A DNA stretch of 64,000 nt. Source: a virus. Lineage: Duplodnaviria > Heunggongvirae > Uroviricota > Caudoviricetes. The DNA lies in the IMG/VR virus record IMGVR_UViG_3300032053_000009, positions 82,630-146,629 of that record. One strand, 5' to 3'. The notes beneath the pieces are model-generated. The model was not told where the DNA came from. It did not search any database and saw nothing but the letters and a program-made list of their open reading frames with translations. This document shows positions 916-35,998 of this stretch, piece after piece. The number at the start of each line of letters is the position of its first letter. Within the stretch, counting starts at the first letter, position 1. Position numbers and translations under genes: made by a program.

Positions 916-1096
916 TCTTTTTCCATTTCTGTCGATGTTCGATCAAATGCTCTCTGCACAAGACGTGACCGATGGCAGCCTTGTCTTGACACAAGGGGCA
1001 TAAACCCAACCTTTTTGACTTTTCGTATTTCCTCTTCTGTATTCTTTTCCAATTGCGGACTCGCCCGTAAATCCGGCGTCGCCGCAAGAGGGTCAT
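866..1096 (-). CDS. small basic CxxC/His protein (possible degenerate HNH), 76 aa
   Basis: The sequence contains 'LCPLCQDKAAIGHVLCREHLIEH'. The gene sits directly downstream of the 477-aa gene with a 4-nt overlap. Confidence 0.25.
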   Translation of the reverse strand: MTLLRRRRIYGRVRNWKRIQKRKYEKSKRLGLCPLCQDKAAIGHVLCREHLIEHRQKWKKNGVPSNGRNMQPVSAQ

Positions 1097-9904: not shown

Positions 9905-10119
9905 TATTCCTCCACCCCTTTTGAAGAGACTTCTTTGCCACACTTCGGACACTTCATGCCGTTGATGCTCAGCATCATGTCTCCATCTGCACTTTCGACA
10001 ACGCTGTGCGAGATCCGCCCAATCCTGCCTCCGCACTCGCAGATGATGTTCTGTGCGTCGTCAAGAATATACTGACACTGCTCAATCGGTTCTGGCGATC
10101 CCTGTCTTACGAAGCTCAT
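9904..10119 (-). CDS. zinc-ribbon protein, 71 aa
   Basis: The protein has CEC near the N-terminus and CPKC later. Its stop and the start of the next gene form a TAATG overlap. Confidence 0.45.
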   Translation of the reverse strand: MSFVRQGSPEPIEQCQYILDDAQNIICECGGRIGRISHSVVESADGDMMLSINGMKCPKCGKEVSSKGVEE

Positions 10120-10498: not shown

Positions 10499-10679
10499 AT
10501 TCAGTCATCTGCCTTCCCAGTTTTTTGATTCCTTGCGAAACGCCCTGCACTTCAAAATAAAATCCTGTTCCTGACTCGCCGATGAGAACGTGATTCAACT
10601 GCATCAACGCTCGATCAAGCTGCGCCAGATAATGTCCGGCATCGTTCTCGAACGCCTGCAAATCTTCAAGCTGGCTCAT
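10341..10679 (-). CDS. hypothetical protein, 112 aa
   Basis: Its start overlaps the portal stop as ATGA. Only the first 75 aa look protein-like. The C-terminal tail is low in complexity. Confidence 0.4.
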   Translation of the reverse strand: MSQLEDLQAFENDAGHYLAQLDRALMQLNHVLIGESGTGFYFEVQGVSQGIKKLGRQMTEYVQEKRKEIFDEIDKESGRTEASHASTVQRKGDAANTERVRSGAEPISSPRL

Positions 10680-12568
10680 AGCGGCGCCGTTTCTCCACCT
10701 GGCGCCACAGGCAGCTTCTCCGACTCTTCAGGCGCTTCCCCGACCCCTGGGGCGCCCCCTGGCTTGCCTGGTTCAGGTCCACCGCCTGGCGGAGGAGGCA
10801 GCTCGCCAACTCCCATTGGTCCACCTGGCTCGCCCGCTGGCGTCAAATCAGACAAAGGCTTCGGTCGCTTGATCGGCTTCTCTTTGTCGGCGCCCTCTTG
10901 CATCTTCTCTTTCGTGGCTAAATCTTGCAGGATGTCTTTGATCTTATCGCCACGAAGGAACCGATCTCGAAGCTCTTTATTGTCCTCGTTCTCAAGATAT
11001 TTCTTCTTCAGCTCTTGCCAGTCTTTGTCGAGGTACGTCGCTTCCTCGGTCTCAAATTGCTTCGTGACTGTCTTGGCGCTGAAACCAAACACGTCGTTGA
11101 TGACCTCTTGAGGTATGCGCCCGTCATTCCGCATCCTGATCAACATCTCTTGCTCGGTCGTGTTGTTGAGCAAGTTCAGCTTCTGCCAAATGAAGTTCGG
11201 CAGGAAATAGCGGTCGTCCGGCACCACGCCTTTGCTGAGCACTTTCACTTTATGCGCTACTTCAGCGGGCGTCGGCTTGTACAGCTTCTGCTCCCGTGCG
11301 ATGGGAAGGAAAATCTTGTACTTGAAGATCTTTTCTATGGCAGCCCGATCCGTAATGTAGCGATGGAACAGCATTTTCAGGTTCACGGTCTGACCTGCGT
11401 ATGACGGCGCCTCGCCGCCAAGCAGAGCTTCGTTGGAAAACAGACCGATCATGATCCGCTTCCCCACCCAGTCAAACCACGGAATCAAGTTTTCAATCTT
11501 GTCCTTCGTGCCCACGTAATCAACCTGGATGCCGAAGTGATAGATGATGTTGTAATCGGGATCGTTCGCTGCCGAGACAAGGAGCTGCTTAAACTTGTCA
11601 AAATGTTTCTTCGATGGAATCCAGCCCTTGGCTTCAGAGCCGAGTTTGAAAATCTTGATTGGGAACATATGGCGGTCAACGAACGTGTACTGAAGGTAAC
11701 GCAACTTATCCTCGAACAGAAGATCCTTCAGCACTCTCTTCACCAGCGATAAGCCACGCAGCGTGTACTTTGATGTCCTGTTGGCGAAATGAATAACTCG
11801 GTTGGCGTCAAGCATATGCGGCTTGCCGTGACCCATTGACTCCACGAACTGCTTGGGCATGAGCGCTACAATGGCACGATCCACGGGATCGTTGGAGCCG
11901 ACAATCTTTTGGATCTCAGGATCAGGAAGAAGAAAGTAAGCGGCAGAGTTGGAAACGTAAGTCCGTTTGATGTCAATGTATTCAGGCGGATATTGATTCC
12001 ATTCCTGCCACTCAAAATTGGTTTTATCCCAGACGCCATACCAAATGGATTCGCCCAAGAGATATTTGTCCCGCAACATCCACTGAGCCATTTGAAGCAT
12101 ATCCAGCTTTTCTTTGACGTAATTGAAATAGGTTTTGACACTGGGATCTTCCACCTGAAGCTCGAAATCCGAGAGAGGAAAGGTGCTGTGGATGTCAATG
12201 ACGGAGCCGACGTAAGGCTGAAATTTGTAATAGTGGCGGAGACGTTTGTTGACTTCTTTTAGGTTGTCTTCAGGGAAGAGAAGGAGAACTGTGTCCCAGA
12301 GTGGATCGACGTACAGCAGTGGCGTTCTAATCGTATCCTGCGAACTGGATTGGAATAGTTGCTGGAAGTCAGCCTGGCGCTTGAAGCCTTGACTGGTTCC
12401 AAGCTGGCCGCTACCTGTGCGTGTCCCCGTTCCATCGGCCTTAGCCATCTCTTTCAAAGCGTCGGACGCCGATTCCAACAACTCTTCTTGAGCGGCAGAC
12501 CGATGGAACGGAGCACTAAAGCCCATGCCATCAAACTCGTCTGGATGCTGACCGTTACTTTTGGCCAT
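10676..12568 (-). CDS. putative portal protein, 630 aa
   Basis: The size and acidic, aromatic-rich composition fit a portal. It has a C-terminal Gly/Pro-rich tail. It is the first large gene of the head block, followed by protease/scaffold and capsid genes. Confidence 0.5.
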   Translation of the reverse strand: MAKSNGQHPDEFDGMGFSAPFHRSAAQEELLESASDALKEMAKADGTGTRTGSGQLGTSQGFKRQADFQQLFQSSSQDTIRTPLLYVDPLWDTVLLLFPEDNLKEVNKRLRHYYKFQPYVGSVIDIHSTFPLSDFELQVEDPSVKTYFNYVKEKLDMLQMAQWMLRDKYLLGESIWYGVWDKTNFEWQEWNQYPPEYIDIKRTYVSNSAAYFLLPDPEIQKIVGSNDPVDRAIVALMPKQFVESMGHGKPHMLDANRVIHFANRTSKYTLRGLSLVKRVLKDLLFEDKLRYLQYTFVDRHMFPIKIFKLGSEAKGWIPSKKHFDKFKQLLVSAANDPDYNIIYHFGIQVDYVGTKDKIENLIPWFDWVGKRIMIGLFSNEALLGGEAPSYAGQTVNLKMLFHRYITDRAAIEKIFKYKIFLPIAREQKLYKPTPAEVAHKVKVLSKGVVPDDRYFLPNFIWQKLNLLNNTTEQEMLIRMRNDGRIPQEVINDVFGFSAKTVTKQFETEEATYLDKDWQELKKKYLENEDNKELRDRFLRGDKIKDILQDLATKEKMQEGADKEKPIKRPKPLSDLTPAGEPGGPMGVGELPPPPGGGPEPGKPGGAPGVGEAPEESEKLPVAPGGETAPL

Positions 12569-14502: not shown

Positions 14503-14544
14503 AAGTCCTCCTTTTAGACATTCACTTCAAAATTGTCGTGCCAA

Positions 14545-14589: not shown

Positions 14590-14669
14590 TAAGAACTGGC
14601 ACGGCACGGTGGGATCTTAGGTCCCCAAAAGGTGATCAGCCCTTCCCGCTCTCCGACAAATATGTTTTG

Positions 14670-14993: not shown

Positions 14994-15008
14994 ATTGCCT
15001 CCTAAGAA

Positions 15009-15863: not shown

Positions 15864-15865
15864 AA

Positions 15866-16420
15866 TCAGTTCTCCCTCAAATATCGAATTGCCTTTTCCA
15901 AGCGCTCAACGCTATCTCGAAAAAACCCCAAACCACCATTACACCCATCGCACAGCAATCCACGAACGTGTCCTGTCTTATGATCATGATCAACCGTCAA
16001 AGCTCTTTTCAATTCGGTTTGATGTTGTCCGCACACTCCACATTTACCGCCTTGAATCTGATACCTACGATCATATTCAAGAGGCGTAATGCCATATTGT
16101 CTCAACAATCGCACAGCCTTATCTTTGTGCTTATTCTTGGCATAATGAAGTCGAGCCTTTTCACAATTTTTTACAGGATCTTGATTCGCCACATCACGAC
16201 TTCTTTGTTTGATCACATCTTTGTTCTTTTGGTAATAGCGAGAATCAATCCTATACTGTCGCTCTGGGTTGTTCCGTTTCCAAAGCCGCACCAAATCCGC
16301 TTGACATAATTTACAGTTCTTCTGCAAACCATCTTTGCTTGTCACGCACTTAGAATATTCAGACAGAGGTTTTTCTGTCCCACACGTATTGCATATTTTA
16401 GCAACACACTCAATCATCAC
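15866..16420 (-). CDS. endonuclease VII-like (HNH-fold) junction resolvase, 184 aa
   Basis: The C-terminal motif CGVCGQ...LTVDHDHKTGHVRGLLCDGCNGGLG matches the T4 gp49/EndoVII family. An N-terminal CxxC zinc module is also present. Confidence 0.7.
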   Translation of the reverse strand: MMIECVAKICNTCGTEKPLSEYSKCVTSKDGLQKNCKLCQADLVRLWKRNNPERQYRIDSRYYQKNKDVIKQRSRDVANQDPVKNCEKARLHYAKNKHKDKAVRLLRQYGITPLEYDRRYQIQGGKCGVCGQHQTELKRALTVDHDHKTGHVRGLLCDGCNGGLGFFRDSVERLEKAIRYLREN

Positions 16421-17172
16421 GACTCCCGAAAATAAACGATTCCACCATCGGTCGTGCTGTACTCGCCGTCGTAATGGCTCAGGAAGTGCGGCCAGCCATC
16501 GGTATCCACAGCGTCCTCGGCGGCGGCGTCAATGTCAATCAAATTGTTTTCCATGATGAGCTTCTTCGCTTCTTCTTCGCCGAAGTTGCTTTCGTAATGG
16601 TCGTACCCGCCTCGACCTTCACTGATCTGATCCTCGGTCATCTTCTCCACGAACTCATCAATGTGATCTTGCGGCTCAAAGCCTTCTACGAGAGCGTCAT
16701 CTTTATCCACGATGCCACGCTCCACCAACTCGTCTGCAAGACGGCTGGACAACCCTTCATGAGATGGCTCGCTGTCGATGTCCGTAGCGTAGCTCTGATT
16801 CCACTCATTGTAAACCTCAGTGAAAAAATCACGAGCCTTGCCTTCATCAATCTGCGAGTTCAACCATTCCTGATTAAATATGGTCGGCTCATTTTCAAGA
16901 TCGTCATGCGTCTGTTCCACTGCCGCAGCGTGCGCCTCGTCCTCTCCCCAGAAAAATCTGTACTCAACGCCATCCGCTTTGAATGAGCCGCCCTTGTCAT
17001 CACTCTTAAAATCCTCAACACCTTCGGGTTCCACTGAGCACGCCTTTGCAAGATCAGCTATTGCAGCCTCGTCGTCCATCGACGCCTGCTTCGCCAGCTC
17101 ATCTACAGCAGCCTGCGCATCCATTCCTCTTCGAGCGAACTCTTCAAGCTGTTTAAGCCTGTCCATAATCAA
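16417..17172 (-). CDS. highly acidic protein, 251 aa (DNA-mimic/internal protein candidate)
   Basis: About 30% of residues are Asp or Glu, and no enzymatic motifs are visible. Confidence 0.5.
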   Translation of the reverse strand: MIMDRLKQLEEFARRGMDAQAAVDELAKQASMDDEAAIADLAKACSVEPEGVEDFKSDDKGGSFKADGVEYRFFWGEDEAHAAAVEQTHDDLENEPTIFNQEWLNSQIDEGKARDFFTEVYNEWNQSYATDIDSEPSHEGLSSRLADELVERGIVDKDDALVEGFEPQDHIDEFVEKMTEDQISEGRGGYDHYESNFGEEEAKKLIMENNLIDIDAAAEDAVDTDGWPHFLSHYDGEYSTTDGGIVYFRES

Positions 17173-17390
17173 CCCTTGTACTGTTCCAAGTTATCGAGCC
17201 AGGCTCGATACGAATCGTCAAGCAAATCATTCAAGTCACTCAACGCCGTGGAATCTTTCAGAATCGCTTTCGCTTCCTCTTCAGAGATTCCTCGTGAAAG
17301 GATGTCTTCAATCATGACCTTGAAACCAATGTCAATGTCGTTCAGTTGTTCGGGCGCTGCTGGCGCTTCATCAGCGGTTTTCGTCCACAT
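17169..17390 (-). CDS. small acidic protein, 73 aa
   Basis: Acidic and helical, with an ATGA overlap to its neighbour. Confidence 0.45.
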   Translation of the reverse strand: MWTKTADEAPAAPEQLNDIDIGFKVMIEDILSRGISEEEAKAILKDSTALSDLNDLLDDSYRAWLDNLEQYKG

Positions 17391-18793: not shown

Positions 18794-19123
18794 CGCCCTG
18801 CCTCCTAAAATGTAATGTATTTATACAATCTTTTCAACACTGTCTGGTAGTGTTTCCTGTTATAAGCACAATCTGTAGTGTGTTCTTCCTCGGTGATCAT
18901 CTTTTCAAGCACGTCAGCAAATTCTCAAGCGATCTGTCATCCAGTCTCGATTCAAGACTGAACCCCTCCGGCGCCGCTTTTCTTATCTTTGGCTTGTACT
19001 CAGGACGCACCATCGGTTTAGGATGGCGCACCCTGGAAATGCCATTCAATAACGCCAGCGCAGCATCGAGACTTCCTCGTATTTTCATGCCTCAACTCCC
19101 ACAAAGTCATATAATTTCAGCCC

Positions 19124-19642
19124 ATGAACAAACGAGGACCGAAACCCAAACCAATCGAACAGAGATTTTGGCAACACGTTAAGAAAAATGAATCGTGTTG
19201 GGTTTGGACAGGATGCAAGGTCTCGGCTGAATCTCAATATGGCATGATACGGATGCCAAATCAAAACAGTAAACGAATCATGTTGCTTGCTCATCGCCTT
19301 TCTTGGGAACTTCACTATGGAACAATCCCACCTGGACAACAAGTTCTTCATCGTTGCGATAACCCTCCATGCGTAAACCCCAAACATCTTTTTCTTGGAA
19401 CCCCAAAAGATAACGTACATGATGCCATGAATAAGCATCGCTTTATTCAAGGCGAAACGCATGGAAGAGCCAAGCTGACTACAAACGATATTAAGAACAT
19501 ACGCAACTTGTCCGAACAAGGATGGACAGCCGATAACATTGCCCAGGCTTACCCAGTAACTAAGTATCACATTTCTCAAATTATCAGACGTAAGAGATGG
19601 ACTCATATCATGCCAGCTCCAAGTCTTTCTCAGCGACCGTAA
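19124..19642 (+). CDS. HNH homing endonuclease, 172 aa
   Basis: The motifs WHVKKNESCWVWTGC...GYGMIR...LAHRLSW...HRCDNPPCVNPKHLFLGTPKDN match HNH_3 plus a C-terminal DNA-binding region. It is the only clearly motif-supported plus-strand gene here and converges on the giant gene. Confidence 0.8.
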   Translation: MNKRGPKPKPIEQRFWQHVKKNESCWVWTGCKVSAESQYGMIRMPNQNSKRIMLLAHRLSWELHYGTIPPGQQVLHRCDNPPCVNPKHLFLGTPKDNVHDAMNKHRFIQGETHGRAKLTTNDIKNIRNLSEQGWTADNIAQAYPVTKYHISQIIRRKRWTHIMPAPSLSQRP

Positions 19643-22600
19643 AAGCCAATCCGGTCGGTTGATCGTATCCATCGAGCGTCACAGCGTCATACTCTTTGTC
19701 AGCGGAAACATCCGCTGCGTGCCGCTTCAACACCTTTGCTTTGTCTCCTGATGTAAGCCACACGAGATCGCCCTCGTTGAATTTATACCCGCCACTCTTG
19801 AAGAACTCTTCCGTTGACTGAATCTTAAGCGCCATTTTCTTGCGCTTCAACTTACGAGACTCAGCGTCAAGTTCCCAGGCGCTACCCGCCAGGTCTGAAC
19901 TCTTGAACTGCTCGAAGTATTTGGCATCCTTCTTCATCTCCATCGGCACGTGTTTGTCGCAATAATAAGTAGGCGTATTGCTGCCGCTGTAATATGCCAC
20001 GATAGGTCCAGCATGACCCGTACCAGATGTGTCAGCGCATTTCTGAGCTGCCTCTTCTTCAAACCGCTCATTGAACTCACGCTCTGGCTCAATGATATTG
20101 AAATCATAAATGGACTCCACTTGTCCACTCGGCAACATCACATCAATCACATCCAACGTGCCTTCATTGGGCGCATAATCCACCAGCGTCACTTCCGCAT
20201 CCTGTGTCAGCCACTTCGCCGCAGGATAAGATTCAACAAGACCAGGCGCCGTCGGTGTAACCTTCACTTTCGTGCCAGGTTCAAGACCAGCTCGCTTCTT
20301 CAGCCCAGCCGTGATCCATCCTTGCGGAGTGAGAACTTCAAAGCTCACTTCATTATCTTCAGCAGCGCCGTCAGCCACGGTCATTCTGGAAACAGACACA
20401 CGATGCTTGCCATCATCGAACTTCACGTTGTCGAAGTGACCCGAATGAATGGTTGGCAACGCCATCAACTGTTCCTTGTTCATGTTCATGACCGTCTCAT
20501 AGTCCAGCTCGTCAGCCTTCTTGCTCATCGAGCCAACGATGTCCTGCGGCTTGTGCGTCACTTCCTCGCCGCCCTTCTCAGCCAGCACGACCGTGATCTC
20601 ATAAGCCTTTTTGATCCCGTGCTCCTTGGCTATTTTCTGCTGAGCCTCATAAGAAGTCTTGGCGTGCGTCTCATACTGCTTGCCCCTGTAGTAACCGATG
20701 TACCCGTTCTCGCCGTCAGCTTGTTTGTCCAGTGACGACTCGCCGTGCAGACCCTTGTCGCCATCATCAACAGATTCAACGGCGGCAGTTTGCTGCATCG
20801 CTGCCTTCATTCCCGCTTCATCCACTTCAGCAGCGGCGCCCATATATCTCTTGAGCACACTCTGGATCTTGGAAGTTGTCTGCGAATACTTCTGCGTGTT
20901 GATGAACGTCTGACCTTCGTTGGATCGGTAAGCGATTGGCGTGGCGTAATTGATAAGCGACCAGCCGTTCGGCTCCTTGTTGATTTTCAAGTTCTGCGTG
21001 CCCCAAGTCGGCATCTTGTCTTTCGGGAATGAGTCAGCAGCGAACATTGAAATGACCTGCTCATTCGTGGCAGCCTGTATTTCAAGCGACGCCTTCACTT
21101 CCCCACCAGACAACAGCGCTTCAATCTCTCCCTTGTAAGCATCACCAAACGGGATCTCAATAAACCGCTTGCCATACCATTCATGACCCTCCACGTCAGC
21201 GTTGGACCATTGGAAACCCATGCCTTCATTTTCAAGGAAGGCTATGATCTTGTCCGCTTCTTCAGGAGAAGATGGGAGGACGTACAGATCATCAAGTCCA
21301 TGACCCAACCCATGCGAACCAAACTCAGCCGCTGTCACTTCTGTCTTGGCCGCTTCTTCAGCAGCTTGCGCCTTCTCTTCTTTGTTTTGTTTGCGGGTCT
21401 CCTGTTGCTCCTTGAGACGCTTCTCCAACTTTTCCAAAGCATCGACGGTAGAGGCTATTTCGGACGGTTCCGCTTTCTCCACGTCAAGTTCTTTCAGTTT
21501 CTTACGGAGCGACTTCACTTGATCTGATAGTCCGGCTTCGATAACAGAGCCGAACGCACTCCCGCTCATAATACCAAGCGCCGCCTGCACTCCTTCGGGG
21601 TTAGCTCCGGCGCCGATAAGGGCTTGAGCCATGACGTTCAGCATAGTTCTATTCTTTTTGTAATCGTCCAAGACTCTCATGTAATCACCATAATGTCCTT
21701 TGGTGGTGGCCATCTTACTTTCTATGGTCTTGACCATTTCAAGAATATCTGGATCTTTCGACAGATCAGAAATAACCTTCTGAATTTTCTGCTCCCTCGT
21801 CTCTCCCCCTGGCTTCACCTGCTCGGTCGCTCCTGCCGTTACTGTAGCCGCTTCCTCGACAGCCTTGGCTCGTTCGTCTTTCTTGGTCTGACGAGTCTCC
21901 TGCTGATCCTTCAGCCTCTTCTCCATCTTCTCAAGCGCATCTACAGTGGACGCAATCTCAGACGGATCTGCTTTTTCCACATCAAGATCCTTCAGCTTCC
22001 GACGCAGGGACTTCACTTGGTCGGAGAGTCCGGCGTCAACTTCAAATTGCGGATCTCGCACACGCTCTGTGTACGACCGCTCCTGACGTTTCACCACGTC
22101 AGCACATTCAGGACAGTACACGAACCCCGTGGAGTCAAACTCTTTACCACAGGATTTGCATTTGGTCTTGTCACCCATCGCACCTTCAGCGCCAAGATCT
22201 TCTTCTGCCGGAGTCATATCGAACACGATCTCATCCCACAGCTTGCTCGCCGTGACCTCATTCGTAAATCCATTGACGGCAACGAAACCCTGTTCGCCCG
22301 TGCCGATGATGATGAACGGATGAACTCTGAACCATTCCTTCTCGGCGTCGGTGAGAGGCGCAACCTTTAATTCTTCTGCCGCCTTCTCCGCCTCTTCAAC
22401 AGTAACGTCTCGAAGTAAGCCATACCACTCCGACGTGCCTTCATTGCTTACTTCTTCGTCGGCGCCCGCCATCGTCAACTCCCAGGCAATCTGATCCACG
22501 ATGGTGCCGAATTTGCCAGGTCCATAAGGTCGAATCCCCTCCGCCGCTGTCTTTTTCATACCGCCCTCCTGAAGTCCGGCAAAATGAAGCGTGCCTTCAT

Positions 22601-25600
22601 CGCCAACATAAATGTTTATCTCACCAAACGAGTGAGCGATCTCGGTCAACTTGTCGCCAATCTCGCCCAACCCACGATCCCAGAATCCAGCGCCATGCCC
22701 ATTGCGAGTCAGCCAGAAGTCATGTCCGGCTTGTTCTTCGCTCATGTCTTTCAATAAATCTCCGGCCTGCTTCTGAAACTCCGCACAGTCAGCCTTGGCC
22801 AATTCAATATCGTCAGGAGCGATGTCAGAGAAGTCATAATTCTGATCCAGCGGATCGCCGCCCGATTCATCTGACTCATCGTTGGACGACCATAGCGCCG
22901 CCTCAAGATACGAGCCAACGAACGCACCCAAGCCTTGATAGGATACGTCAGCGCCCATAACCTTCTTCTGTTCAAACTCGTTACGGTGCTCTCGCTCCTG
23001 TTCTATCGTATGGTCAAGCACCTTCTTGAGCTTCGGGCTGGCGTCTTCCTTCTGCCCACGATATTCGTCAATGGCAGCCTGCTCAAGCTCCACATCCCGC
23101 TTCACAATCTCTTCGTCTCGACCAGCGGTCTTCGTCATATCCACGGGACTGATACCGCCGTGGTCATCTTGCAACCAAACGCCTGGATAGAACTTCTCTT
23201 TGTCCATGTGGCTTTTGATAGCAGCCATGATCTCATCCCACTCCACGGACTTGGCAATCTGTTTCCCACTTTGATAAGCGGCGTACATCCCACCAAGGCG
23301 TCCTTCGGTCGTGATCACGATGTCGTCATCGGCAGGCTCAGTCGGCTCATCGGTTTGAAGCAGATCTTCAACGGGGAGAATTTCATCTGGATTGCCATCA
23401 GCAACGCCATGATCAAAGAAGTCAGCTTTGCGCTTCGCCGCCGTGACATCCTGCGCATACGTCTTTCCGCAGCCAGGACATTCATAATGGTACTGCAAGG
23501 CGCCCGCCGGACTCTTGATGTCCAGCTCTTCGCCACAATCATCGCACCGCTTCATATCTTCCGGCTCGGCTTCGGCTGTGAATGCGTATTTGCATTCAGG
23601 GCAGGTATGAGTCTCTGTGTGAACGGGCGCACCTGGCACTTCAACAAAATCAGTTCGTGCGCCGCACTTCGGACACATCATGGGTTGGTCATGAAGATAA
23701 TAAATGTCTTCAGCGGCTTCGATCAACATCCGCTTCACCATGCCAGCTTTCTTTGTGCGCACGGGCGACATTGACCAGTCTTCGCAATTCTGCGGCATAT
23801 CAGCAATGGCTTCATGCTCAGCTTGATGTTGATCACGATTCTCGATATTGTGTTCAGAAATCAAATCACCTTCAATGCTGTAATAACGCACGTGCCAATT
23901 CCGTGCGCCACGCTCATCAGCCACGCCTTCATCTCTGCCGGAAGTCTTTGTCCAACGACTTCGCTTGGATGACTCGGCGCCAATATCTTCTTCTTCCTTC
24001 GGCGCTTCCGGTCGGGCGTAATAATGCTCGCCTGTCGGTGCGTCGTGGTGATAGACCTTGAAGTGCAGGGCGTCACCCTCGTCATAGACTTCGACAGTCA
24101 CGTCTGTCTTCGGCAACACTTTGTCAAGGAACTCAGCGCCGTTATTGGTCTCAACGTACATATAACCAGACCGAGCCTGCCAGCCCAGGTTTGATCCATC
24201 GAGACGCCACGGCAGATTGTTTGGATTCTTGGCCGCCAGAGCTTCACTAAGACCGTCCTTCAAATCATCCCAAGCGAACTGATAAATGTCCGAGTCTTCG
24301 TATGCAGAGTTACGAGCCTGTTCTTCGGCTTCGCCTTCGAGTCCTTCTTGCTTCAGCAACGCCTTGAACTTGTCCGCATCATGACCGGACTTCTCCCACG
24401 CCTCTTCAACCTCATCCTTCATCCAATAGTCATTGCCTTCGTCCGGCTCTTCCATAAGCCACTTCACTTGATTGTCGGCAACATCAGACTGGTCATAGGA
24501 CAGGATCAACTGCCCTTTCTCTTCGCCCCGTGCTGTACGTTTTGAAGCCTCAGTCTTCGGCAACCGCCCCGTGCCTTCGCACGCCGGACACTCTTTGCCT
24601 TCCACATGACCGTCGCCGCCACAGTTCGTGCAGGTCTCCCAGTCTTTGGATGTCTTGGTCCAGCCAGGCTTCTTTCTGGATAGCCCTTCCAGTGGCAGCT
24701 CAGGTTGTTCCGGCGCCACTCCTCCGGTTTCCTGTTTGATGGTCTCAATCACTTCCTCGGCATTGTTCAACAACTCTTTCTCGTCAAGGTAGGCTTCGCC
24801 ATGATTGGCAAACGTATCTTCCACCGCCCGCCACAACATCTCGTCAGCCTTCTCAGATAACTCATAATCAGGCAGGTTGAGATGCTTCTTTATCATAGCC
24901 AGCGCATCCTGTCGTGCCCAGCTATCGTAGTCCTCACGATATTCTTCAGTCTCAGTTTCGGAATAATCATCCTCATCAAGCACAGGATAGTCCGCCATCT
25001 TGTTCTCGATGTCCTGAAGGATCGCCACCTTTTCCTTGGCGTCCTTGTGAACCAGAATACTCTCCACCCAACCCACAGCCCAATGATTAAAGCGAGCCAC
25101 GATAACGCCATCCTTCTCGCCGCCAAGCATCTCAAGGGCTGACTTGAAGTTGGATCGCTCAAGCGCATCAGAGTCACGGCTCTGGCCAGGTCCAACATAA
25201 TAATCGGGATAGTCCTCACCCATGTAATCAGCCGGATGCTCCCACAACTTCAGCGCCACACGAGACAGCGCTGCCCCTTTCTTCTGCGGGCGCTTCGATT
25301 CAAGATAAGCCAAGATGTCACCCACGTCACCGCTACCCGCATCGTATTGGATCTTAACGTCCGGCTGGCTCTCAGGAATCAAAATCAAATGCTGAGCTTC
25401 GGTGCCAGGCTTGTACGTAAAAGTTGTCGCCGCCGGATCGCCTTCACGTTCACCTGTGAAGAACACATCCTCAGTCCAAAACTTCTCATGCACGTTGTCG
25501 CCATCAACCTTGATGTAGACGCCCTGGTACTTGTCAAACTCTTTATGGGACGCACGGAACCCTTCGGCGCTGAGCGCATTCGTGATCTCATCGTACAGCT

Positions 25601-26570
25601 CATGATCATAATCCTGGTCAGGCTCGCCCGTCGCCACTTTCTTAAACTCGCCAGCGATCTTACGAGACGTGACAGGCTGCTTCTGCTTCTTCATCTTGTA
25701 CGCCATGTGATCGTGGGTCAGCGCTTCAATGATCTGCGCCGCTTGCTCTTCATTGATTCCGTACACGCTCACCATTTCATTGATCGTGTCCGACATCAAA
25801 CCATAGTCAGCCATGTTGGATGTGTCAAAATGACCATACCCGTAATAAGGATCAGTCCCGTCCATGATGGCTTTGATGAGTCCGGCAACCTTGTCATCGC
25901 CCGCCGCTTCACGCTCGCCATAAGTCTGCCGCAGCAAATCGTCTTCGCACACATCACAAAGCCCTGCCGCCGCTCCTGAACTGTTGATGATGCCTTCTTT
26001 CTTACAACGCTTGCACGTGCCTTGAGCTGCTTTGCGCTGGCTGACTTCTACTTCCGGCTCATCATCTGGATCATTCATCCATCGAGCGCCGCAATTCCAG
26101 CACTTGTTCAAAGCCTGATCCACGGTCGCCACATCCCACACGGGCTTGCCACACTCAGGGCATTTCACTGAGGCGGAACGCTCAGCCCCAATTGGGTCAA
26201 GATAGTCAGACTCAACACCAATCAAAGTCCCGTTAAAATCCACATTAACATGAGAGCTGTTCTCGAACACCCGCTCAATCGTTCCCGTTGAATCGCCCAA
26301 CTTATTCAGCGTGTCACGCCATTCAAACTGCTCATGCGTATAACCAGCGTGCGCCGGAACGCTCCGGCTGTGCATCGCCAATGCGTTTGGCTTGAGTTTC
26401 ACTTGGTCGCCGACTTTGAAAGTTTGCTTGGCTGCCTTTTTACTGGCTGAACAACTACACGTGCCCATGCAGCTACAAGTCTCTGACTCTTGCTTGATCT
26501 TAGGCGGCGCTTTCCTGTCCTTGGGTTCCACGACATCAATCCATTTCTTCTTAGGTAGTACGTTGTCCAT
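19608..26570 (-). CDS. giant multi-zinc-ribbon protein, 2320 aa
   Basis: Uninterrupted 6.96 kb ORF with an AAGGAGAG RBS. It has at least six CxxC...CxxC modules and an internal duplicated coiled-coil segment of about 64 aa. Composition is acidic. Confidence 0.8.
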   Translation of the reverse strand: MDNVLPKKKWIDVVEPKDRKAPPKIKQESETCSCMGTCSCSASKKAAKQTFKVGDQVKLKPNALAMHSRSVPAHAGYTHEQFEWRDTLNKLGDSTGTIERVFENSSHVNVDFNGTLIGVESDYLDPIGAERSASVKCPECGKPVWDVATVDQALNKCWNCGARWMNDPDDEPEVEVSQRKAAQGTCKRCKKEGIINSSGAAAGLCDVCEDDLLRQTYGEREAAGDDKVAGLIKAIMDGTDPYYGYGHFDTSNMADYGLMSDTINEMVSVYGINEEQAAQIIEALTHDHMAYKMKKQKQPVTSRKIAGEFKKVATGEPDQDYDHELYDEITNALSAEGFRASHKEFDKYQGVYIKVDGDNVHEKFWTEDVFFTGEREGDPAATTFTYKPGTEAQHLILIPESQPDVKIQYDAGSGDVGDILAYLESKRPQKKGAALSRVALKLWEHPADYMGEDYPDYYVGPGQSRDSDALERSNFKSALEMLGGEKDGVIVARFNHWAVGWVESILVHKDAKEKVAILQDIENKMADYPVLDEDDYSETETEEYREDYDSWARQDALAMIKKHLNLPDYELSEKADEMLWRAVEDTFANHGEAYLDEKELLNNAEEVIETIKQETGGVAPEQPELPLEGLSRKKPGWTKTSKDWETCTNCGGDGHVEGKECPACEGTGRLPKTEASKRTARGEEKGQLILSYDQSDVADNQVKWLMEEPDEGNDYWMKDEVEEAWEKSGHDADKFKALLKQEGLEGEAEEQARNSAYEDSDIYQFAWDDLKDGLSEALAAKNPNNLPWRLDGSNLGWQARSGYMYVETNNGAEFLDKVLPKTDVTVEVYDEGDALHFKVYHHDAPTGEHYYARPEAPKEEEDIGAESSKRSRWTKTSGRDEGVADERGARNWHVRYYSIEGDLISEHNIENRDQHQAEHEAIADMPQNCEDWSMSPVRTKKAGMVKRMLIEAAEDIYYLHDQPMMCPKCGARTDFVEVPGAPVHTETHTCPECKYAFTAEAEPEDMKRCDDCGEELDIKSPAGALQYHYECPGCGKTYAQDVTAAKRKADFFDHGVADGNPDEILPVEDLLQTDEPTEPADDDIVITTEGRLGGMYAAYQSGKQIAKSVEWDEIMAAIKSHMDKEKFYPGVWLQDDHGGISPVDMTKTAGRDEEIVKRDVELEQAAIDEYRGQKEDASPKLKKVLDHTIEQEREHRNEFEQKKVMGADVSYQGLGAFVGSYLEAALWSSNDESDESGGDPLDQNYDFSDIAPDDIELAKADCAEFQKQAGDLLKDMSEEQAGHDFWLTRNGHGAGFWDRGLGEIGDKLTEIAHSFGEINIYVGDEGTLHFAGLQEGGMKKTAAEGIRPYGPGKFGTIVDQIAWELTMAGADEEVSNEGTSEWYGLLRDVTVEEAEKAAEELKVAPLTDAEKEWFRVHPFIIIGTGEQGFVAVNGFTNEVTASKLWDEIVFDMTPAEEDLGAEGAMGDKTKCKSCGKEFDSTGFVYCPECADVVKRQERSYTERVRDPQFEVDAGLSDQVKSLRRKLKDLDVEKADPSEIASTVDALEKMEKRLKDQQETRQTKKDERAKAVEEAATVTAGATEQVKPGGETREQKIQKVISDLSKDPDILEMVKTIESKMATTKGHYGDYMRVLDDYKKNRTMLNVMAQALIGAGANPEGVQAALGIMSGSAFGSVIEAGLSDQVKSLRKKLKELDVEKAEPSEIASTVDALEKLEKRLKEQQETRKQNKEEKAQAAEEAAKTEVTAAEFGSHGLGHGLDDLYVLPSSPEEADKIIAFLENEGMGFQWSNADVEGHEWYGKRFIEIPFGDAYKGEIEALLSGGEVKASLEIQAATNEQVISMFAADSFPKDKMPTWGTQNLKINKEPNGWSLINYATPIAYRSNEGQTFINTQKYSQTTSKIQSVLKRYMGAAAEVDEAGMKAAMQQTAAVESVDDGDKGLHGESSLDKQADGENGYIGYYRGKQYETHAKTSYEAQQKIAKEHGIKKAYEITVVLAEKGGEEVTHKPQDIVGSMSKKADELDYETVMNMNKEQLMALPTIHSGHFDNVKFDDGKHRVSVSRMTVADGAAEDNEVSFEVLTPQGWITAGLKKRAGLEPGTKVKVTPTAPGLVESYPAAKWLTQDAEVTLVDYAPNEGTLDVIDVMLPSGQVESIYDFNIIEPEREFNERFEEEAAQKCADTSGTGHAGPIVAYYSGSNTPTYYCDKHVPMEMKKDAKYFEQFKSSDLAGSAWELDAESRKLKRKKMALKIQSTEEFFKSGGYKFNEGDLVWLTSGDKAKVLKRHAADVSADKEYDAVTLDGYDQPTGLAFTVAEKDLELA
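21348..22028 (-). repeat. diverged internal duplication (two 192-nt copies, about 75% nt identity, 300 nt apart) inside the giant gene
   Basis: Copy 1 begins AGLSDQVKSLRRKLKDLDVEKADPSEIASTVDALEKMEKRLKDQQETR. Copy 2 begins AGLSDQVKSLRKKLKELDVEKAEPSEIASTVDALEKLEKRLKEQQETR. Confidence 0.7.
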
Positions 26571-26582: not shown

Positions 26583-29500
26583 TTATTTTGAAGTCATGGC
26601 GTCGTCAATGATGTCGAACGCTTGCACTTCAGACAGTTTGAATTGGCTCATTAGATCTTCGGCGATCTCGTCTTCATTAAGATTGCCGAGCTTCAACAAA
26701 TCTTTCACAAGCTGGGCAGCATTGGTGGCGATGTCCGGCTCCGGCGCCCCTGCTTTCGGGAACACGTCTTGCGTCCCGTACTCAACCGGATCTTCCAACT
26801 TGTCCCGATCACGGGCAGCGGGCTGCACATCCTTATCGAGTCCGCTCTTCTCCGGCTCCGTGTCGGTATGAGCGTGCATAGCAGCGGGCTTCACCCACAA
26901 CCACGACACCATCAGCCCGTAGATGTCCGGCACGTCGCCGCCATTGGTCGATGCAAACTGGCTGGCCACGCTCATGGCCTGCTTCTCGTTCAGGAACGGA
27001 GTCTGGCCTGCGTCCACGTGGCAACCAAGCACCTTGCAGGCAATGTCAAGCAGCGCTTCTTGTGGATCGGTGGCGAGCCGTTTGATCTGAACCACCCTGG
27101 GATCATTGGGAAAGCTCGACTCAAGCTCAAGTAACCTATTAAAATCACTGTGTCCATTTGCTTTTGCGATAATCCAGTCATGACCATTTGTCTTCCAGTC
27201 AGGATGAGTGGTGACAATGCGAGCGTACTCCCCCCACAACTTGTCCGTGTCAATCTTCATCGTCGCCACAAATCTGTTTCCGACCTTCTGCATCATCATC
27301 CGGCCATAGGTCTTGGGCGGCGTTGGCGGCGGCACTTGCTTGGGCACACTGACGATCTTGGCGTCCTTGAATCCAGCTACGAAGTCAATCGCCTCCGCAA
27401 TGTCAGCAAACACTTCATGTCCCGATGGCTGACCATCTTCAGCAAAGTACGTCAGCCGCCATCCATCAGCTCTTGTGTCTTTGGACAGCACGGCAGGCTG
27501 CGGGTACAACCCCGCAATGACAGCGCCTTGCTCAGGATCAATGGTTTCCACCAAACGCTGGCGGCGCTCATCCTTGGCTTTCTTCAAATTGATTGGATCA
27601 TTCGGATCAAGCGGCACGAGCTGGTACGCTTCAATCTCATCTTTCGTGAGTGGGCGTGGAAAGTCCACGGTTCCAAATTTGTAATCAGCGTGCGGCTTCG
27701 TTGATTTAGGAATCCAACCTTTGGGCAGCGTGGCGAATCCCGCCGGACGATATGAAAGCGCATACGTGTAAACCTTTTGCGGCTGAGCTGGCTCCGCTGC
27801 GTTGCGTACCCGCATCATCTTGCCAATGATCTTCGGCACGGGGCGGGCGGTCGGCTCCTCCACAGGCGTCTTCAACACAGGCTCCTGGCCAGGAACAATC
27901 TCTGGCGGAACCTCCGGCTCCGGCGGCGCCGTGGGTTCCGGTGGCCGCTGCTGCGTTATCTCTTCCACTGGCGTTGGCGGAAGGATCGGTTTCTCCTGTG
28001 GTCCCACTCCGGCCACATCCTCCGGCTTCGGTTCCTTGGGCGGTGGCGGTTCAATGCCTGTCTGCTTGGCAAGTTGGTCATGGATCTTCCGCACATCCTC
28101 TTTGGTGTACTTCAATTGGTTGCGGCTGAGCCAGGTGTAAATCTCATGCTGAATCGCCTCCATATCCATGCCCTTCAGCTTTTCCAGCGTCACCATTTCC
28201 AGCACTCGGTTCGCTACGTAGACTGGTTGAAGGCTGATCGCCGCTTGACTATCTATTGAGGTGTTAAGCGACTCTCGGCGCACGCTCTCAGATTGCACAG
28301 ATGACACATCCAAATCACTGCCAATGGGTTGCTGTAATCCGTGTGGTGCATTTCTGAGTTGAGGCTCCCGCACTTGCAACACGGTTCTTTCTTTATTTTC
28401 CCCACTGAAACGAGATGTCTTGCCTGCTTTCGTGTTTTGACTTTCATTATCTGTTCTGGTGTTGGAGGTTTTCGCACTCGCACCTTGCGTGGCTTCACTT
28501 CCAAATTGTGGAGAGCGAGATGACACTTGCGGCACATCCACACTATCTCTAAAGGCTTGCCGTGATCGGGATGGTGCATTTGTGAGATCGGATTCCCGCA
28601 ATGAGCGCACGGTTCCATCTTCTTTTCTTGTCCACGTCGAAGATGATTCCAAGCCATCTGACGTGCTCTCTTGCGTGCCAACTGTGCCTCGTTGAGAGGA
28701 TGAGTCTTGCTCCACGTCCTCATGTATTCCCTCATATATGCCCGATGACAATCGAGGCATCGCCCGTTCCCCTTCATTCTCTGCTGGCCGCATTGGCATA
28801 GTTCCGAGTTCATGATCACTGATTTTAGACCATTTTTTAAGACCACTCCATACCTTCATATCCTCAATGGCGACATCCACATCCCCCAATCCTGACCAGG
28901 CTTCAGGTCCTTCCGGTTCGTAGTTGACGCCGGACTCCACGTTGGCGGACACGCTCAGCCGCATCTCGCCGTCCTTCTGTCCCGTCTCTTTATTGATCAG
29001 CTCCACAAACACGTCACCGAACACCACGCCCTCATCCTCGTCAAGGTGTGTGATGGTGATCTGCGGGCGGTACAAAGTAAAATCGAGTTCAAGGTAATCC
29101 GGCACCAGATCCGGCAGCACTTGAATGACTTGATTCTCAACCTCTTCATCGTATTGCCATGCGTGGCCACGGCGCTGCGGCTCGGCAGGCGAGTCCGTTC
29201 GTGGTTCATCAGCCTTCATCACCGTTAAGGGTGGGAGATTAGGCGATCTCGAAGGCGGCTTAACCGCCTCCGGTTTTTGGGGCGGCGGCGCTGGTTTCAC
29301 TGGCTCCACAGGTTTATCACCACGTTCAATGTGATGTGGTTCATTATCAACCTTTCTCGGCTCACCTGGCTCTTGCGCCTGCTTGGTGAGCGCCCAGCTC
29401 GCTTTCTTCGCTACTTTGCGGGCTGTACGAGGTGCTTTAACCTTCTTTTGAACTTTTTTTGTTGATTTTGACGTTCCATGTGGAACTTTTTGACCTGTTT

Positions 29501-30416
29501 TACCCGCTCTCTTGTCATCCATCTCGCACCACCCCTCATCAATGACGTTCTTGATCTCGGACAAATCTTGTGGATTCAATTCCGGCTGTTCATCCACCTC
29601 TCCCATGATCTTTTCCAGATTCTTCCACAGCCAAATGTAGCCAAATTTTTGCAGGTATTTGAAGGTCAGGTTCTCTTCCGAGTCCGGCTCATACGCCTCG
29701 TCCCGCTCCTCGCTGACATCATACGCCTTCTCCATGATGTCCACGAGTTCTTGTTCCAACTCACCCATCCGCTCCTGAACTCTCTTCTGAAACTTTGATC
29801 GAGACAAGGCATCCATAGTTTGTAGTGCCTCTTCAAGCGCCTCAATGTTCTGGATGTCACGCTTGGCGTCGCCAATGGATATGTCCAGCTCCTGCGTGAT
29901 TGCTTCAGCGTCATCTATAATGGAAGAGTAAATCGCTTCAGGATCAAAGTCAGATTCAACCGACCGTGGTTCCTGCTCCCACGTGTCGTTCAGCAAATCA
30001 TAAATGCCATCACTTGTGGTTGCCACCTTATCCGGCGTTTCAAAGCTGATCTCCAACGGATGGCTTGTTCCTTCCACCTTCCACTGCTGATCTCTTATGG
30101 CATCCTTGTACGTGTCAACGACCTCTTCCAGATCGGTTTTAGACAGCCCAGGATATTCAGCCTTCAGCGCATCCCAGTCCACGACAACGTGAACGTCCAG
30201 GTCTGACTTGGAGTTGTACTGCCAGCTCGTGAGGCTACCCAGGATTCTGACAGCGCCAATCCAGTTCACATCTGCCAGGTATTCATTCATCTTCGCCAGT
30301 ATGTCGGCTTTGATATTTTGCTTCAATATTCCATTCTCTTCCCACACGTCTGGGCAGAGTCCTGGCTTTGGATAATCGAGTACGTTCGCTCTCTTAATCA
30401 ATTGTTTTGTGAACAT
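26583..30416 (-). CDS. large protein, 1277 aa, with Pro-rich linker
   Basis: Uninterrupted ORF. It has an N-terminal globular domain, a long central P/E/S-rich disordered region and a C-terminal domain of about 450 aa. Confidence 0.75.
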   Translation of the reverse strand: MFTKQLIKRANVLDYPKPGLCPDVWEENGILKQNIKADILAKMNEYLADVNWIGAVRILGSLTSWQYNSKSDLDVHVVVDWDALKAEYPGLSKTDLEEVVDTYKDAIRDQQWKVEGTSHPLEISFETPDKVATTSDGIYDLLNDTWEQEPRSVESDFDPEAIYSSIIDDAEAITQELDISIGDAKRDIQNIEALEEALQTMDALSRSKFQKRVQERMGELEQELVDIMEKAYDVSEERDEAYEPDSEENLTFKYLQKFGYIWLWKNLEKIMGEVDEQPELNPQDLSEIKNVIDEGWCEMDDKRAGKTGQKVPHGTSKSTKKVQKKVKAPRTARKVAKKASWALTKQAQEPGEPRKVDNEPHHIERGDKPVEPVKPAPPPQKPEAVKPPSRSPNLPPLTVMKADEPRTDSPAEPQRRGHAWQYDEEVENQVIQVLPDLVPDYLELDFTLYRPQITITHLDEDEGVVFGDVFVELINKETGQKDGEMRLSVSANVESGVNYEPEGPEAWSGLGDVDVAIEDMKVWSGLKKWSKISDHELGTMPMRPAENEGERAMPRLSSGIYEGIHEDVEQDSSSQRGTVGTQESTSDGLESSSTWTRKEDGTVRSLRESDLTNAPSRSRQAFRDSVDVPQVSSRSPQFGSEATQGASAKTSNTRTDNESQNTKAGKTSRFSGENKERTVLQVREPQLRNAPHGLQQPIGSDLDVSSVQSESVRRESLNTSIDSQAAISLQPVYVANRVLEMVTLEKLKGMDMEAIQHEIYTWLSRNQLKYTKEDVRKIHDQLAKQTGIEPPPPKEPKPEDVAGVGPQEKPILPPTPVEEITQQRPPEPTAPPEPEVPPEIVPGQEPVLKTPVEEPTARPVPKIIGKMMRVRNAAEPAQPQKVYTYALSYRPAGFATLPKGWIPKSTKPHADYKFGTVDFPRPLTKDEIEAYQLVPLDPNDPINLKKAKDERRQRLVETIDPEQGAVIAGLYPQPAVLSKDTRADGWRLTYFAEDGQPSGHEVFADIAEAIDFVAGFKDAKIVSVPKQVPPPTPPKTYGRMMMQKVGNRFVATMKIDTDKLWGEYARIVTTHPDWKTNGHDWIIAKANGHSDFNRLLELESSFPNDPRVVQIKRLATDPQEALLDIACKVLGCHVDAGQTPFLNEKQAMSVASQFASTNGGDVPDIYGLMVSWLWVKPAAMHAHTDTEPEKSGLDKDVQPAARDRDKLEDPVEYGTQDVFPKAGAPEPDIATNAAQLVKDLLKLGNLNEDEIAEDLMSQFKLSEVQAFDIIDDAMTSK

Positions 30417-34231: not shown

Positions 34232-35998
34232 TCAAGCGGTTTTCCCTGCGTGAAATCTTGCCTTCACTCCCTCGCCCGTATCCAACGACATGGAAACGGT
34301 TTCCCCTTCATCATCTGAAGCGGATAAATTTTCGCTGACGTATTCACCTTCATCAAAGCCAAGCAACCCCAGCGGCTCGATCAAAACCTTGACGGCGCCA
34401 ACACACGTATCCGCCACGTCCTTGCTACCCGTGTCGGGGTGATCGACTTTGAGACCTTTCAAAAGCTCAAGCGCCTTGATTTCAATGATCTGTTTCGGAT
34501 AATTCAACAAACTAATCCGTTGAAAGTAAATTTGTTCCTTGAAATTCTTGTAATCCTGTAGATCCAATCGGTAGGTTGTGCTGGAAATGCCAGCCGCTCG
34601 CAGGTTCTGAACCATCTGCGCTGAGTTCCATTGATCGAAGTAAACGCCTTTGACAATGATCTTGCTGGAAATTTGTTTTATGATTTCTTCAATATTGGGA
34701 AAGCTGACGATGAGCTTCTTCTTCGGGTCTGGCTCCCACGCCGTCACCGCATCTTGAATAAAATTAATAGACGAAGCGCCTTTAGGCAGCATGAAACGTT
34801 CAGCGTGAAATATGGAAAACCCAGCGCTGTCGTTGTTAAGTCCCAGATCAATTGTAATAATATGTTCATGGCGCAAAAATGCTGGCACGTTCCACTTCAC
34901 CAGCCTCTTCATAATGTACTTGCCTTCCGTGTAAGTTTCAAACTCTATTAACGGCTTGCGGTTGTCATCCACGCAAGCGTCCACCATCTCCACCTTCTCT
35001 ATAAAGGGCGACTCCGCTCCTGGCGGCAGGCACATATATTTTGCCTTGGCATCAGTGGGATCTCGGTCGAAATGTTCCTTAAACTCAAGCGGCACTTCAT
35101 AACTTTCAAATGTGAACCACTGACCGGAGAAACATTCCCTGGGTTTGATCTGCCACGTGAACCCTTTGTCGGCGTAGACGTGCAGCTTGTCCTGCGCCCA
35201 GTCGTACATCTTCTCTATGAAGTCCCCTTCGTACCGTGGATAAGAAAGCAGAAAACTTTTAACCGACGTGCCGAACCGTGACTTCGCCGACGAGTCCAAC
35301 ATATTGTAAATCTTGCTGGCATTGCGAGTTTGCGTCTTGTCTTTGAACGCCGAGATCTCGTCGCAAACGTAGGTGAGGATGTTCATACCTTCGGTGGATT
35401 CTTGTTCGGAGTGGCGGGAAAAAGCTCGCAGTCGTTTCGGGAAGAAGATGGAGTTTTTGTTGACCGTGATAACGTTCTCGTATTGCCATTCTTCCGCAGG
35501 CTCGACGAAGCGACCGCTCATTTTAATCGGGTACTTCTGCTTCAGCCACGCCCAATTGAGAACGTTGTTTTTGAGCTTGTCGAAGAAGACGTTGAGCGCC
35601 TGGTCGCTTGAGTACGCCACGTTCACGCAGTCGATGGTGTCCCTCACCGAAATCCCAGGGAACTTGGCTTGCGGGCGCCTCATGCACAACAAAACGTGGA
35701 TCAGGTAAAGAATAATATGGCACGAGATAGTATCTTTACCTGATCCTTTGCCCCATTCCAGCACGGCTGTAGAATTTATGTTGTCAAAAATCTTTTTTGG
35801 ATCGTCGCCAAGCATGAAGTCGGCAACGCTGTACTGTCGGTCGCTATAGGAAGGGTAGTCCATGTGAAACGGAGATGTGATAAAATTGTGAAACGTCATC
35901 GGCTCTTCATCCCAAACAACGATGTGTCGATCTCCGGTAACGGATTTCGACTTTAATCCCGCCGCTGCTTCCGTGATGTAATTGTCAAGTGAGAGCAT
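34232..35998 (-). CDS. terL: terminase large subunit, 588 aa
   Basis: Walker A (GKGSGKDT) and Walker B-like (VCDEISAF) motifs are present. The C-terminal nuclease region contains ITIDLGLNNDSAGFSIFHAE. Confidence 0.8.
   Translation of the reverse strand: MLSLDNYITEAAAGLKSKSVTGDRHIVVWDEEPMTFHNFITSPFHMDYPSYSDRQYSVADFMLGDDPKKIFDNINSTAVLEWGKGSGKDTISCHIILYLIHVLLCMRRPQAKFPGISVRDTIDCVNVAYSSDQALNVFFDKLKNNVLNWAWLKQKYPIKMSGRFVEPAEEWQYENVITVNKNSIFFPKRLRAFSRHSEQESTEGMNILTYVCDEISAFKDKTQTRNASKIYNMLDSSAKSRFGTSVKSFLLSYPRYEGDFIEKMYDWAQDKLHVYADKGFTWQIKPRECFSGQWFTFESYEVPLEFKEHFDRDPTDAKAKYMCLPPGAESPFIEKVEMVDACVDDNRKPLIEFETYTEGKYIMKRLVKWNVPAFLRHEHIITIDLGLNNDSAGFSIFHAERFMLPKGASSINFIQDAVTAWEPDPKKKLIVSFPNIEEIIKQISSKIIVKGVYFDQWNSAQMVQNLRAAGISSTTYRLDLQDYKNFKEQIYFQRISLLNYPKQIIEIKALELLKGLKVDHPDTGSKDVADTCVGAVKVLIEPLGLLGFDEGEYVSENLSASDDEGETVSMSLDTGEGVKARFHAGKTA

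Follow-up and report, generated by a model that had tools for sequence, protein, structure and literature searches.

Polyvalent proteins of phages and conjugative elements form a class described by Iyer, Burroughs, Anand, de Souza, and Aravind in 2017 (PMC5512222). In phage P1, DarA and Hdf lie on the inner face of the capsid and are needed to load the other Dar proteins, including DarB of approximately 2,000 amino acids (aa); DarA and Hdf anchor DarB, DdrA, DdrB, and Ulx inside the head. On ejection, these proteins leave together with the DNA; the N-terminus of DarA is cut off by the prohead protease (PMC12810830). The internal proteins and Alt of T4 carry an N-terminal capsid-targeting sequence, and ejection proteins of phiKZ and SPN3US are cut by the prohead protease (PMC5694885, PMC10052503). 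Here, we analyzed a stretch of 64,000 nucleotides (nt) from a virus of the Caudoviricetes (IMG/VR record IMGVR_UViG_3300032053_000009, positions 82,630 to 146,629; hereafter the window), in which one gene encodes a protein of 2,320 aa (hereafter the giant). We hold with moderate confidence that the giant is a mosaic multi-module protein of the polyvalent type that most probably enters the head and is delivered along with the DNA.

The open reading frame (ORF) of the giant occupies positions 19608..26570 on the minus strand and runs from ATG to stop over 6,963 nt without interruption, so that the single 2,320-aa ORF reported in an earlier, sequence-only reading of this DNA is confirmed. A Shine-Dalgarno sequence (AAGGAG) lies 8 nt before the ATG, the start is 12 nt after the upstream gene, and an identical protein, carried by a 146,629-bp contig, is on record from three sources. 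The giant is a very acidic polypeptide (isoelectric point 4.7, net charge −173). A whole-protein search returned 15 giants of 1,300 to 2,320 aa, namely, the entry of the query itself and 14 relatives, and all 15 are likewise strongly acidic. Scans of the full-length protein against Pfam, PHROGs, and NCBIfam gave matches to zinc-ribbon families and families of unknown function only, and searches of Protein Data Bank (PDB) sequences with the full giant and with profiles of two of its modules, M_c and M_d, gave no match. A motif scan of the full protein found no HExxH and no Walker A motif, in agreement with the earlier statement that a P-loop is lacking. A nucleotide search of cultured phages found no match to this phage, and a promoter and terminator scan gave no signal above shuffled background. 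A separate 195-aa ORF on the minus strand (19085-19672) overlaps the 3′ end of the giant gene by 65 nt in a different frame; its region is conserved in a relative, locus L005, where a 63-aa gene is called.

The giant comprises approximately 20 modules, delimited by homology blocks, zinc ribbons, and linkers. At least three of them (M_c, M_d, and the phrog_1915 module) are complete counterparts of small phage proteins that stand alone. Apart from the zinc ribbons and an internal repeat, the modules are placed as follows:
26430..26570, minus strand: N-terminal leader (aa 1-47), basic, containing CSCMGTCSC and ending in ASKKAA; 71% identical in L005.
26193..26429, minus strand: SH3-like module (aa 48-126), not in the closest relative, shared with the giant P0005.
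25671..25889, minus strand: module (aa 228-300) with 56% identity to the giant P0010.
25272..25658, minus strand: module M_c (aa 305-433), an alpha+beta domain with invariant TGEPDQDYDH and HKEFDKYQGV motifs.
24681..25271, minus strand: module M_d (aa 434-630), equal to a stand-alone phage family of approximately 190-210 aa (phrog_3906/4313).
23121..23423, minus strand: module (aa 1050-1150) shared with the giants P0003-5 and P0008 and with the 497-aa protein P0087.
22566..22955, minus strand: phrog_1915 module (aa 1206-1335; E 1.5e-31), equal to a stand-alone family of approximately 120 aa.
20853..21182, minus strand: module (aa 1797-1906) shared with the giant P0008.
20334..20489, minus strand: phrog_37997 module (aa 2028-2079), inside the stretch aa 2023-2204 that is not in L005.
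19611..19958, minus strand: conserved C-terminal module (aa 2205-2320), 67% identical in L005.

The phrog_1915 module matches more than 7,300 clusters (clustered at 90% identity) of approximately 120-aa proteins, which are 55-65% identical to it and span the whole module. This family has no Pfam model and no name, and it is common in phages of Mycobacterium, Gordonia, Erwinia, Klebsiella, and Caulobacter. Records of 318 cultured phages match the giant; among the matches listed, the top ones all fall on the phrog_1915 module and are annotated as hypothetical. M_d matches approximately 80 stand-alone proteins of 190-210 aa, and M_c is common to ten other giants and some 200-aa stand-alone proteins. 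Structure modelling covered aa 305-640, and M_c and M_d were each modelled confidently as independent domains, with predicted local distance difference test scores (pLDDT) of 82 and 89, respectively; the M_d model has no fold relative in the PDB. The genes for the stand-alone homologues sit in runs of small unknown ORFs; one adjoins a Mom-like gene, and one lies within the 22-kb terminal repeat of Caulobacter phage CcrBL9.

Module content is reshuffled among the giants, and 13 of the 14 relatives share only 3-9% of the query, in scattered blocks. The comparison with L005, which is syntenic with the window, gives a measure of the rate of change. The terminase, portal, and protease of the two are 90%, 96.5%, and 91% identical, respectively, and the 461-, 467-, and 1,277-aa genes of the window are 84-90% identical to their L005 counterparts, whereas for the giant the identity amounts to 55-78% along most of the alignment, with one 79-aa stretch at 91%. 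The L005 giant is without aa 48-126, aa 2023-2204, and one zinc ribbon, and it has three extra ribbons. The giant is thus the fastest-changing gene of its neighbourhood, as expected of a gene under host-conflict pressure. In L005, it is also split into two ORFs (8920-10011 and 10001-15913, encoding 363 and 1,970 aa) with an 11-nt overlap inside M_d; this split could be a real fission, or a frameshift that is either programmed or an error. An AP2-domain gene resembling homing endonucleases lies just upstream of the split giant. A separate 251-aa gene in the window is homologous to the C-terminal module of the giants P0003-P0006, so that this module is fused in some phages and separate in others. 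In P0003, the giant ORF seems to end within this module, the remainder of which follows in the next gene.

The genes of this region of the window all lie on the minus strand, with the large terminase subunit, a protein matching DarA_C, the giant, the portal, the prohead protease, and the major capsid protein in this order:
46894-50100, minus strand: DnaE-type DNA polymerase III alpha subunit.
34232..35998, minus strand: terminase large subunit (PHROGs).
32563-34212, minus strand: unassigned gene, 549 aa.
31178-32563, minus strand: unassigned gene, 461 aa.
26583..30416, minus strand: 1,277-aa upstream neighbour of the giant, for which Pfam DarA_C passes the cut-off; N-terminus MFTKQ.
17390-18793, minus strand: gene, 467 aa.
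17169..17390, minus strand: gene, 73 aa, starting MWTKTADE.
16417..17172, minus strand: gene, 251 aa, homologous to the C-terminal module of the giants P0003-P0006.
15866-16420, minus strand: Endonuclease VII.
10676..12568, minus strand: portal protein.
8264..10036, minus strand: prohead (head maturation) protease, 590 aa.
5669..6670, minus strand: major capsid protein.

L005 has the same gene order, including the DarA_C neighbour directly upstream of the giant, and the giant P0007 likewise follows a terminase-like gene. In the 1,277-aa neighbour, the DarA_C match covers aa 881-936 and is accompanied by a weak match to the NCBIfam DarA model, an N-terminal phrog_36119 region, and a weak match to Pol-beta nucleotidyltransferases at aa 42-99; aa 528-722 are missing or replaced in L005. 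This neighbour may be a second protein of the polyvalent type. In other phages (L001 and L006), two or three giant mosaic genes occur in succession. The large proteins upstream of the giants in L001 and L006 were considered as homologues of the 1,277-aa neighbour and rejected, since they are not homologous to it; the 1,241-aa protein upstream of P0003 (L001, 6002-9727) and the 1,144-aa protein upstream of P0015 (L006, 3861-7295) share an N-terminal module of approximately 100 aa with each other (39% identity). The major capsid protein of the window has its counterparts in Mycobacterium cluster C myoviruses and in one uncultured 485-kb phage, at an identity of only 25-31%.

Short basic tags recur at the module junctions of the giant. 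The pattern [KR][KR]xA occurs 12 times (3.0 ± 1.9 expected), and among the long proteins of the window such enrichment is confined to the giant; a putative scaffold has 3 (1.0 expected), which is not significant. We therefore rejected this pattern as a general feature of head proteins, its enrichment being clear in the giant alone. An unbiased pattern scan ranked KK.A, KTA, KQA, or ASK at the top in many giants, and P0010 has ESKVNE instead. Homology blocks begin with the tags more often than expected (0.189 versus 0.080 ± 0.021), and the tag-bearing ends are low-confidence linkers in the models of both M_c and M_d. A second form, W-T-K-T-[SA], stands at the junctions at aa 637 and 873, and a form without the tryptophan, M-T-K-T-A, stands at aa 1151. 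The tag is also found at the N-termini of three or four separate genes of the window, where the pattern M-(x)-[W/F]-T-[K/R]-x-[A/S] has three firm cases in the window (0.055 expected). In addition to the 73-aa gene and the DarA_C neighbour, whose N-terminus is MFTKQ, the following genes are relevant here:
1093..2526, minus strand: 477-aa gene, starting MQWTKNAD, with AAGGAGG upstream.
465-722, minus strand: 85-aa gene, GTG start at 722, N-terminus probably VSWTRVA.

Just downstream of the L005 giant, four small genes (at 17800, 18054, 18987, and 19597) start with MWTKTA, MGWTKLA, VWTRTA, and MWTKVD, respectively. The 461-aa gene of the window starts with MKRFADG, and the gene after the giant in L001 starts with MKRKAG. 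Synonymous codons differ between the copies of the tag; it is therefore a protein-level motif, and we rejected a nucleotide-level signal on the same ground. Within the sequences compared, the small WTK-tagged genes showed no match to modules of the giant. In the stand-alone families of other phages the tag is present in 8 of 120 and hence is not general there.

The zinc ribbons form a further set of small units. The giant has 12 CxxC motifs, whereas 0.43 were expected from shuffled sequences (maximum of 4 in 2,000 shuffles), and their pairing yields all six of the Cys4 ribbons that the sequence-only reading had counted as a minimum:
aa 137/140+157/160, 186/189+205/208, and 647/650+661/664: Cys4 units 1-3, from CxxC pairing.
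aa 966/969+990/993, 1009/1012+1031/1034, and 1471/1474+1486/1489: Cys4 units 4-6, from CxxC pairing.
25935..26174, minus strand: zinc ribbons 1 and 2 (aa 133-212).
24561..24653, minus strand: CxxCxGxG zinc finger like those of DnaJ and anti-TRAP (aa 640-670), after the junction tag KKPGWTKTS.
23451..23693, minus strand: double zinc ribbon (aa 960-1040), of which the second ribbon is missing in L005.
22095..22169, minus strand: zinc ribbon 6 (aa 1468-1492).

At aa 990-1038, the double zinc ribbon family of Pfam (DZR) matched above its cut-off, and the CSCMGTCSC sequence at aa 32-40 is a possible seventh metal cluster. CxxC is wholly absent from 6 of the 15 giants, and therefore the ribbons behave as small, dispensable cassettes lying between modules; close relatives differ through their gain and loss. 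The internal 64-aa duplication noted previously is also present:
21843..22034, minus strand: repeat copy A (aa 1513-1576).
21345..21536, minus strand: repeat copy B (aa 1679-1742).

Copies A and B are identical at 51 of 64 residues and at only 72% of nucleotides, which indicates an old duplication kept by selection at the protein level. They are adjacent (in tandem) in the closest relative and approximately 100 aa apart in the giant.

The sequence-only reading had pointed to a DGD tripeptide in the giant, likened it to the catalytic motif of RNA polymerases with a double-psi beta-barrel (DPBB), and proposed a virion polymerase as one candidate function, with the caution that the likeness might be a coincidence. 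The tripeptide is indeed present:
25497..25505, minus strand: DGD (aa 356-358), in a hairpin loop of M_c, not conserved.

A second DGD lies at aa 1936-1938, and since 1.3 are expected from composition, the tripeptide is no more frequent than by chance. An alignment of 20 sequences places it in a variable loop rich in insertions and deletions, where homologues carry PGVD, PGVG, PRIG, or TGGG, and the closest relative, which is 74% identical over M_c, carries RGQG. The AlphaFold check suggested at the time was run on aa 305-640, and the module containing DGD was predicted as a small alpha+beta domain rather than a DPBB (mean pLDDT 82), consisting of a helix, three long strands, two short strands, and a helix, with DGD at the tip of the β2-β3 hairpin. 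In a structural comparison, the predicted fold matched neither a DPBB nor a polymerase, an outcome that the sequence-only reading had itself named as refuting the polymerase idea. When 1.84 billion representatives were searched with a profile, only 115 members of the M_c family were found, alone or anywhere along the chain, in proteins of 47-2,851 aa. What is essentially invariant across the family is T-G-E-[PA]-D-Q-D-Y-D-H (aa 314-323; 25602-25631, minus strand), just before helix 1; H-K-E-F-D-K-Y-Q-G-V, in strand 1 and the following turn, is also invariant. The only DxDxD of the giant, DQDYD at aa 318-322, lies inside M_c. From these invariant residues, acidic ones and histidines, a site for a metal or another ligand may be predicted.

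We infer packaging and ejection from the place of the giant gene, which has the terminase gene on one side and the portal gene on the other, comes directly after that of the DarA_C protein, and runs in the same direction. In the explanation that we favour, approximately 20 independently folding modules of approximately 50-200 aa and six or seven zinc-ribbon cassettes would be strung on short flexible basic linkers; several modules correspond in full to accessory proteins that have genes of their own in other phages, and module content is reshuffled fast between related phages. The giant would be loaded into the procapsid and leave the virion with the DNA, and its delivery would bring modules for early host takeover or counter-defence into the cell before phage gene expression. 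The tags may serve as recognition sequences for capsid targeting, for cutting by the 590-aa prohead protease, or for both. The earlier suggestion of a novel injected effector is still the one to prefer, on the indirect grounds of position, the DarA_C neighbour, mosaicism, and the stand-alone homologues, although a multi-effector chain or polyprotein takes the place of a single effector. Several observations weigh against this explanation. In Pfam, PHROGs, and NCBIfam, no module matches a known effector, enzyme, peptidase, or polyvalent LPD domain, and no embedded zincin peptidase was detected, in line with the absence of HExxH. The DarA_C match is a marginal one, at 28.9 bits where the cut-off is 27, and between the giant and the portal lie approximately 7 kb of unassigned genes. 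To pass the tail channel, a chain of 2,320 aa would have to be unfolded or cut, and the tags could be conserved N-terminal peptides carried over by gene fusion. Finally, P0003 (in L001) sits among genes for a helicase, RNase T, and a T5 A1-like "DNA transfer protein"; therefore, giants are not always in the head module. The last point leads to the main rival, namely, that the same giant is made early or late in infection and acts inside the infected cell without being packaged, as a large scaffold or hub in which fusion ensures co-expression of small functions in fixed proportion. The replication and early-type surroundings of P0003 speak for this, as do the stand-alone homologues in arrays of small ORFs typical of early or accessory regions, one of them in the CcrBL9 terminal repeat. 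We regard it as unlikely, while giving it more weight than any other alternative, because in the window, in L005, and on the contig of P0007 the giant comes right after the terminase and before the portal, because its immediate upstream neighbour has DarA_C in both the window and L005, and because the junction tags are shared with the N-termini of genes in the structural region. Slightly more doubtful still is a true phage polyprotein, in which the tags would direct the chain into the procapsid, the prohead protease would cut at them, and the head would carry approximately 20 proteins. Each of approximately 15-20 modules would then have its own N-terminal tag (K-K-x-A or W-T-K-T-A), the same tag would head separate genes of the region, including the DarA_C neighbour, the small proteins would enter the host with the DNA, and related phages would interconvert fused and separate genes freely.

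The other explanations are considerably less probable than these. Large size, location in that half of the genome which holds late or structural genes, and a coiled-coil repeat would fit a structural role in the virion (as tape measure, fibre, adhesin, or inner-body scaffold, for instance) with ribbons and domains as spacers only. We consider this improbable, since the giant has no repeat architecture like that of fibres or tape measures, its gene lies upstream of the portal and capsid genes and not in the tail module, its modules equal small stand-alone phage proteins of cytoplasmic type, and its content differs between close relatives that have structural genes of 85-96% identity. The split of the L005 gene within M_d might suggest that the giant is an artefact of assembly or annotation, or a decaying pseudo-fusion of adjoining small genes. 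There is very little room for this view, given the uninterrupted frame with a good ribosome-binding site, the same protein from three sources, 14 further giants of 1,300-2,200 aa from other samples, and the repeat, whose copies are 80% identical in protein against 72% in DNA, indicating purifying selection. Least credible of all is a virion-packaged RNA polymerase of the crAss gp66 (DPBB) or N4 virion RNA polymerase (vRNAP) type with DGD in its catalytic metal loop. The very large size, the DGD at aa 356, and the invariant DQDYD in the same module would be compatible with it. For the DGD segment, however, this reading is already refuted: DGD occurs at chance frequency and varies even in the closest relative, M_c is an alpha+beta domain of approximately 115 aa that also stands alone in proteins of 110-200 aa, and DQDYD lies in an N-terminal segment before helix 1 and not in a barrel loop. 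No DPBB with a conserved DxDGD/DxDxD metal loop, as in two-barrel RNA polymerases and crAss gp66-like proteins, was found in the modelled part of the giant (aa 305-640), and searches of Pfam, PHROGs, NCBIfam, and PDB sequences over its full length gave no polymerase family and no match to an N4-type palm/fingers/thumb domain. A false lead is thereby removed.

If the explanation of a head-loaded mosaic protein is true, approximately 7% of a genome of 146 kb goes, in this phage group, into two neighbouring giant genes with a total of 3,597 aa, and the virion is pre-loaded with a large, fast-changing set of small uncharacterized proteins. The "dark" family of approximately 120 aa with more than 7,300 clusters would gain a delivery context, for example as a handle for tests against defence systems, and the tags would predict how cargo is selected and possibly cut.

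Compared with the described systems, the giant combines features of several. Like N4 vRNAP and crAss-like gp66, it is very large and possibly virion-borne, but no polymerase fold or family was detected in it, and its DGD is unconserved and outside a barrel. It resembles the polyproteins that RNA viruses of eukaryotes encode in having many units in one chain with short sequences at the junctions; unlike them, it belongs to a DNA phage, contains no embedded protease, and its processing is a proposal. As in T4, phiKZ, and SPN3US, short N-terminal tags, here with strong statistical support, are common to several proteins encoded close to the genes of the head, a prohead protease gene among them, and by analogy with T4 and phiKZ a logic of targeting and cleavage is plausible for the tags. 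These are K-K-x-A and W-T-K-T-A, however, rather than L/I-x-E or S/A/G-x-E, and they recur inside one polypeptide at approximately 15 junctions. The arrangement recalls the Dar system of P1 in that a DarA_C protein lies directly upstream of a protein of approximately 2,300 aa, comparable to the giant DarB of approximately 2,000 aa or more. It differs from that system in that the neighbour matches the short DarA_C only, and marginally, with no sequence-level match to DarA-N or Hdf, and in that the giant has no Walker A motif and no Pfam match to the N6-adenine methyltransferase or helicase of DarB. The closest likeness is to the polyvalent proteins, with many unrelated domains in one polypeptide, mosaicism among relatives, solo versions of domains in phages, a place beside the portal-terminase packaging system (in the window, L005, and P0007, not in L001), and a DarA-family domain in the neighbourhood. 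Unlike that set, the giant has approximately 20 modules against the 2-15 described, none with an assigned function; the catalogued domains (enzymes, ArdC-N, MuF, and LPD families) were not detected in it with Pfam, PHROGs, and NCBIfam; and it has a recurrent short junction tag and no embedded zincin peptidase, which is frequent, although not universal, in polyvalent proteins. The class is known, and what is new is a member without detectable catalogued domains or an embedded peptidase, built of approximately 20 modules, whose junction tags are shared with the N-termini of neighbouring proteins.

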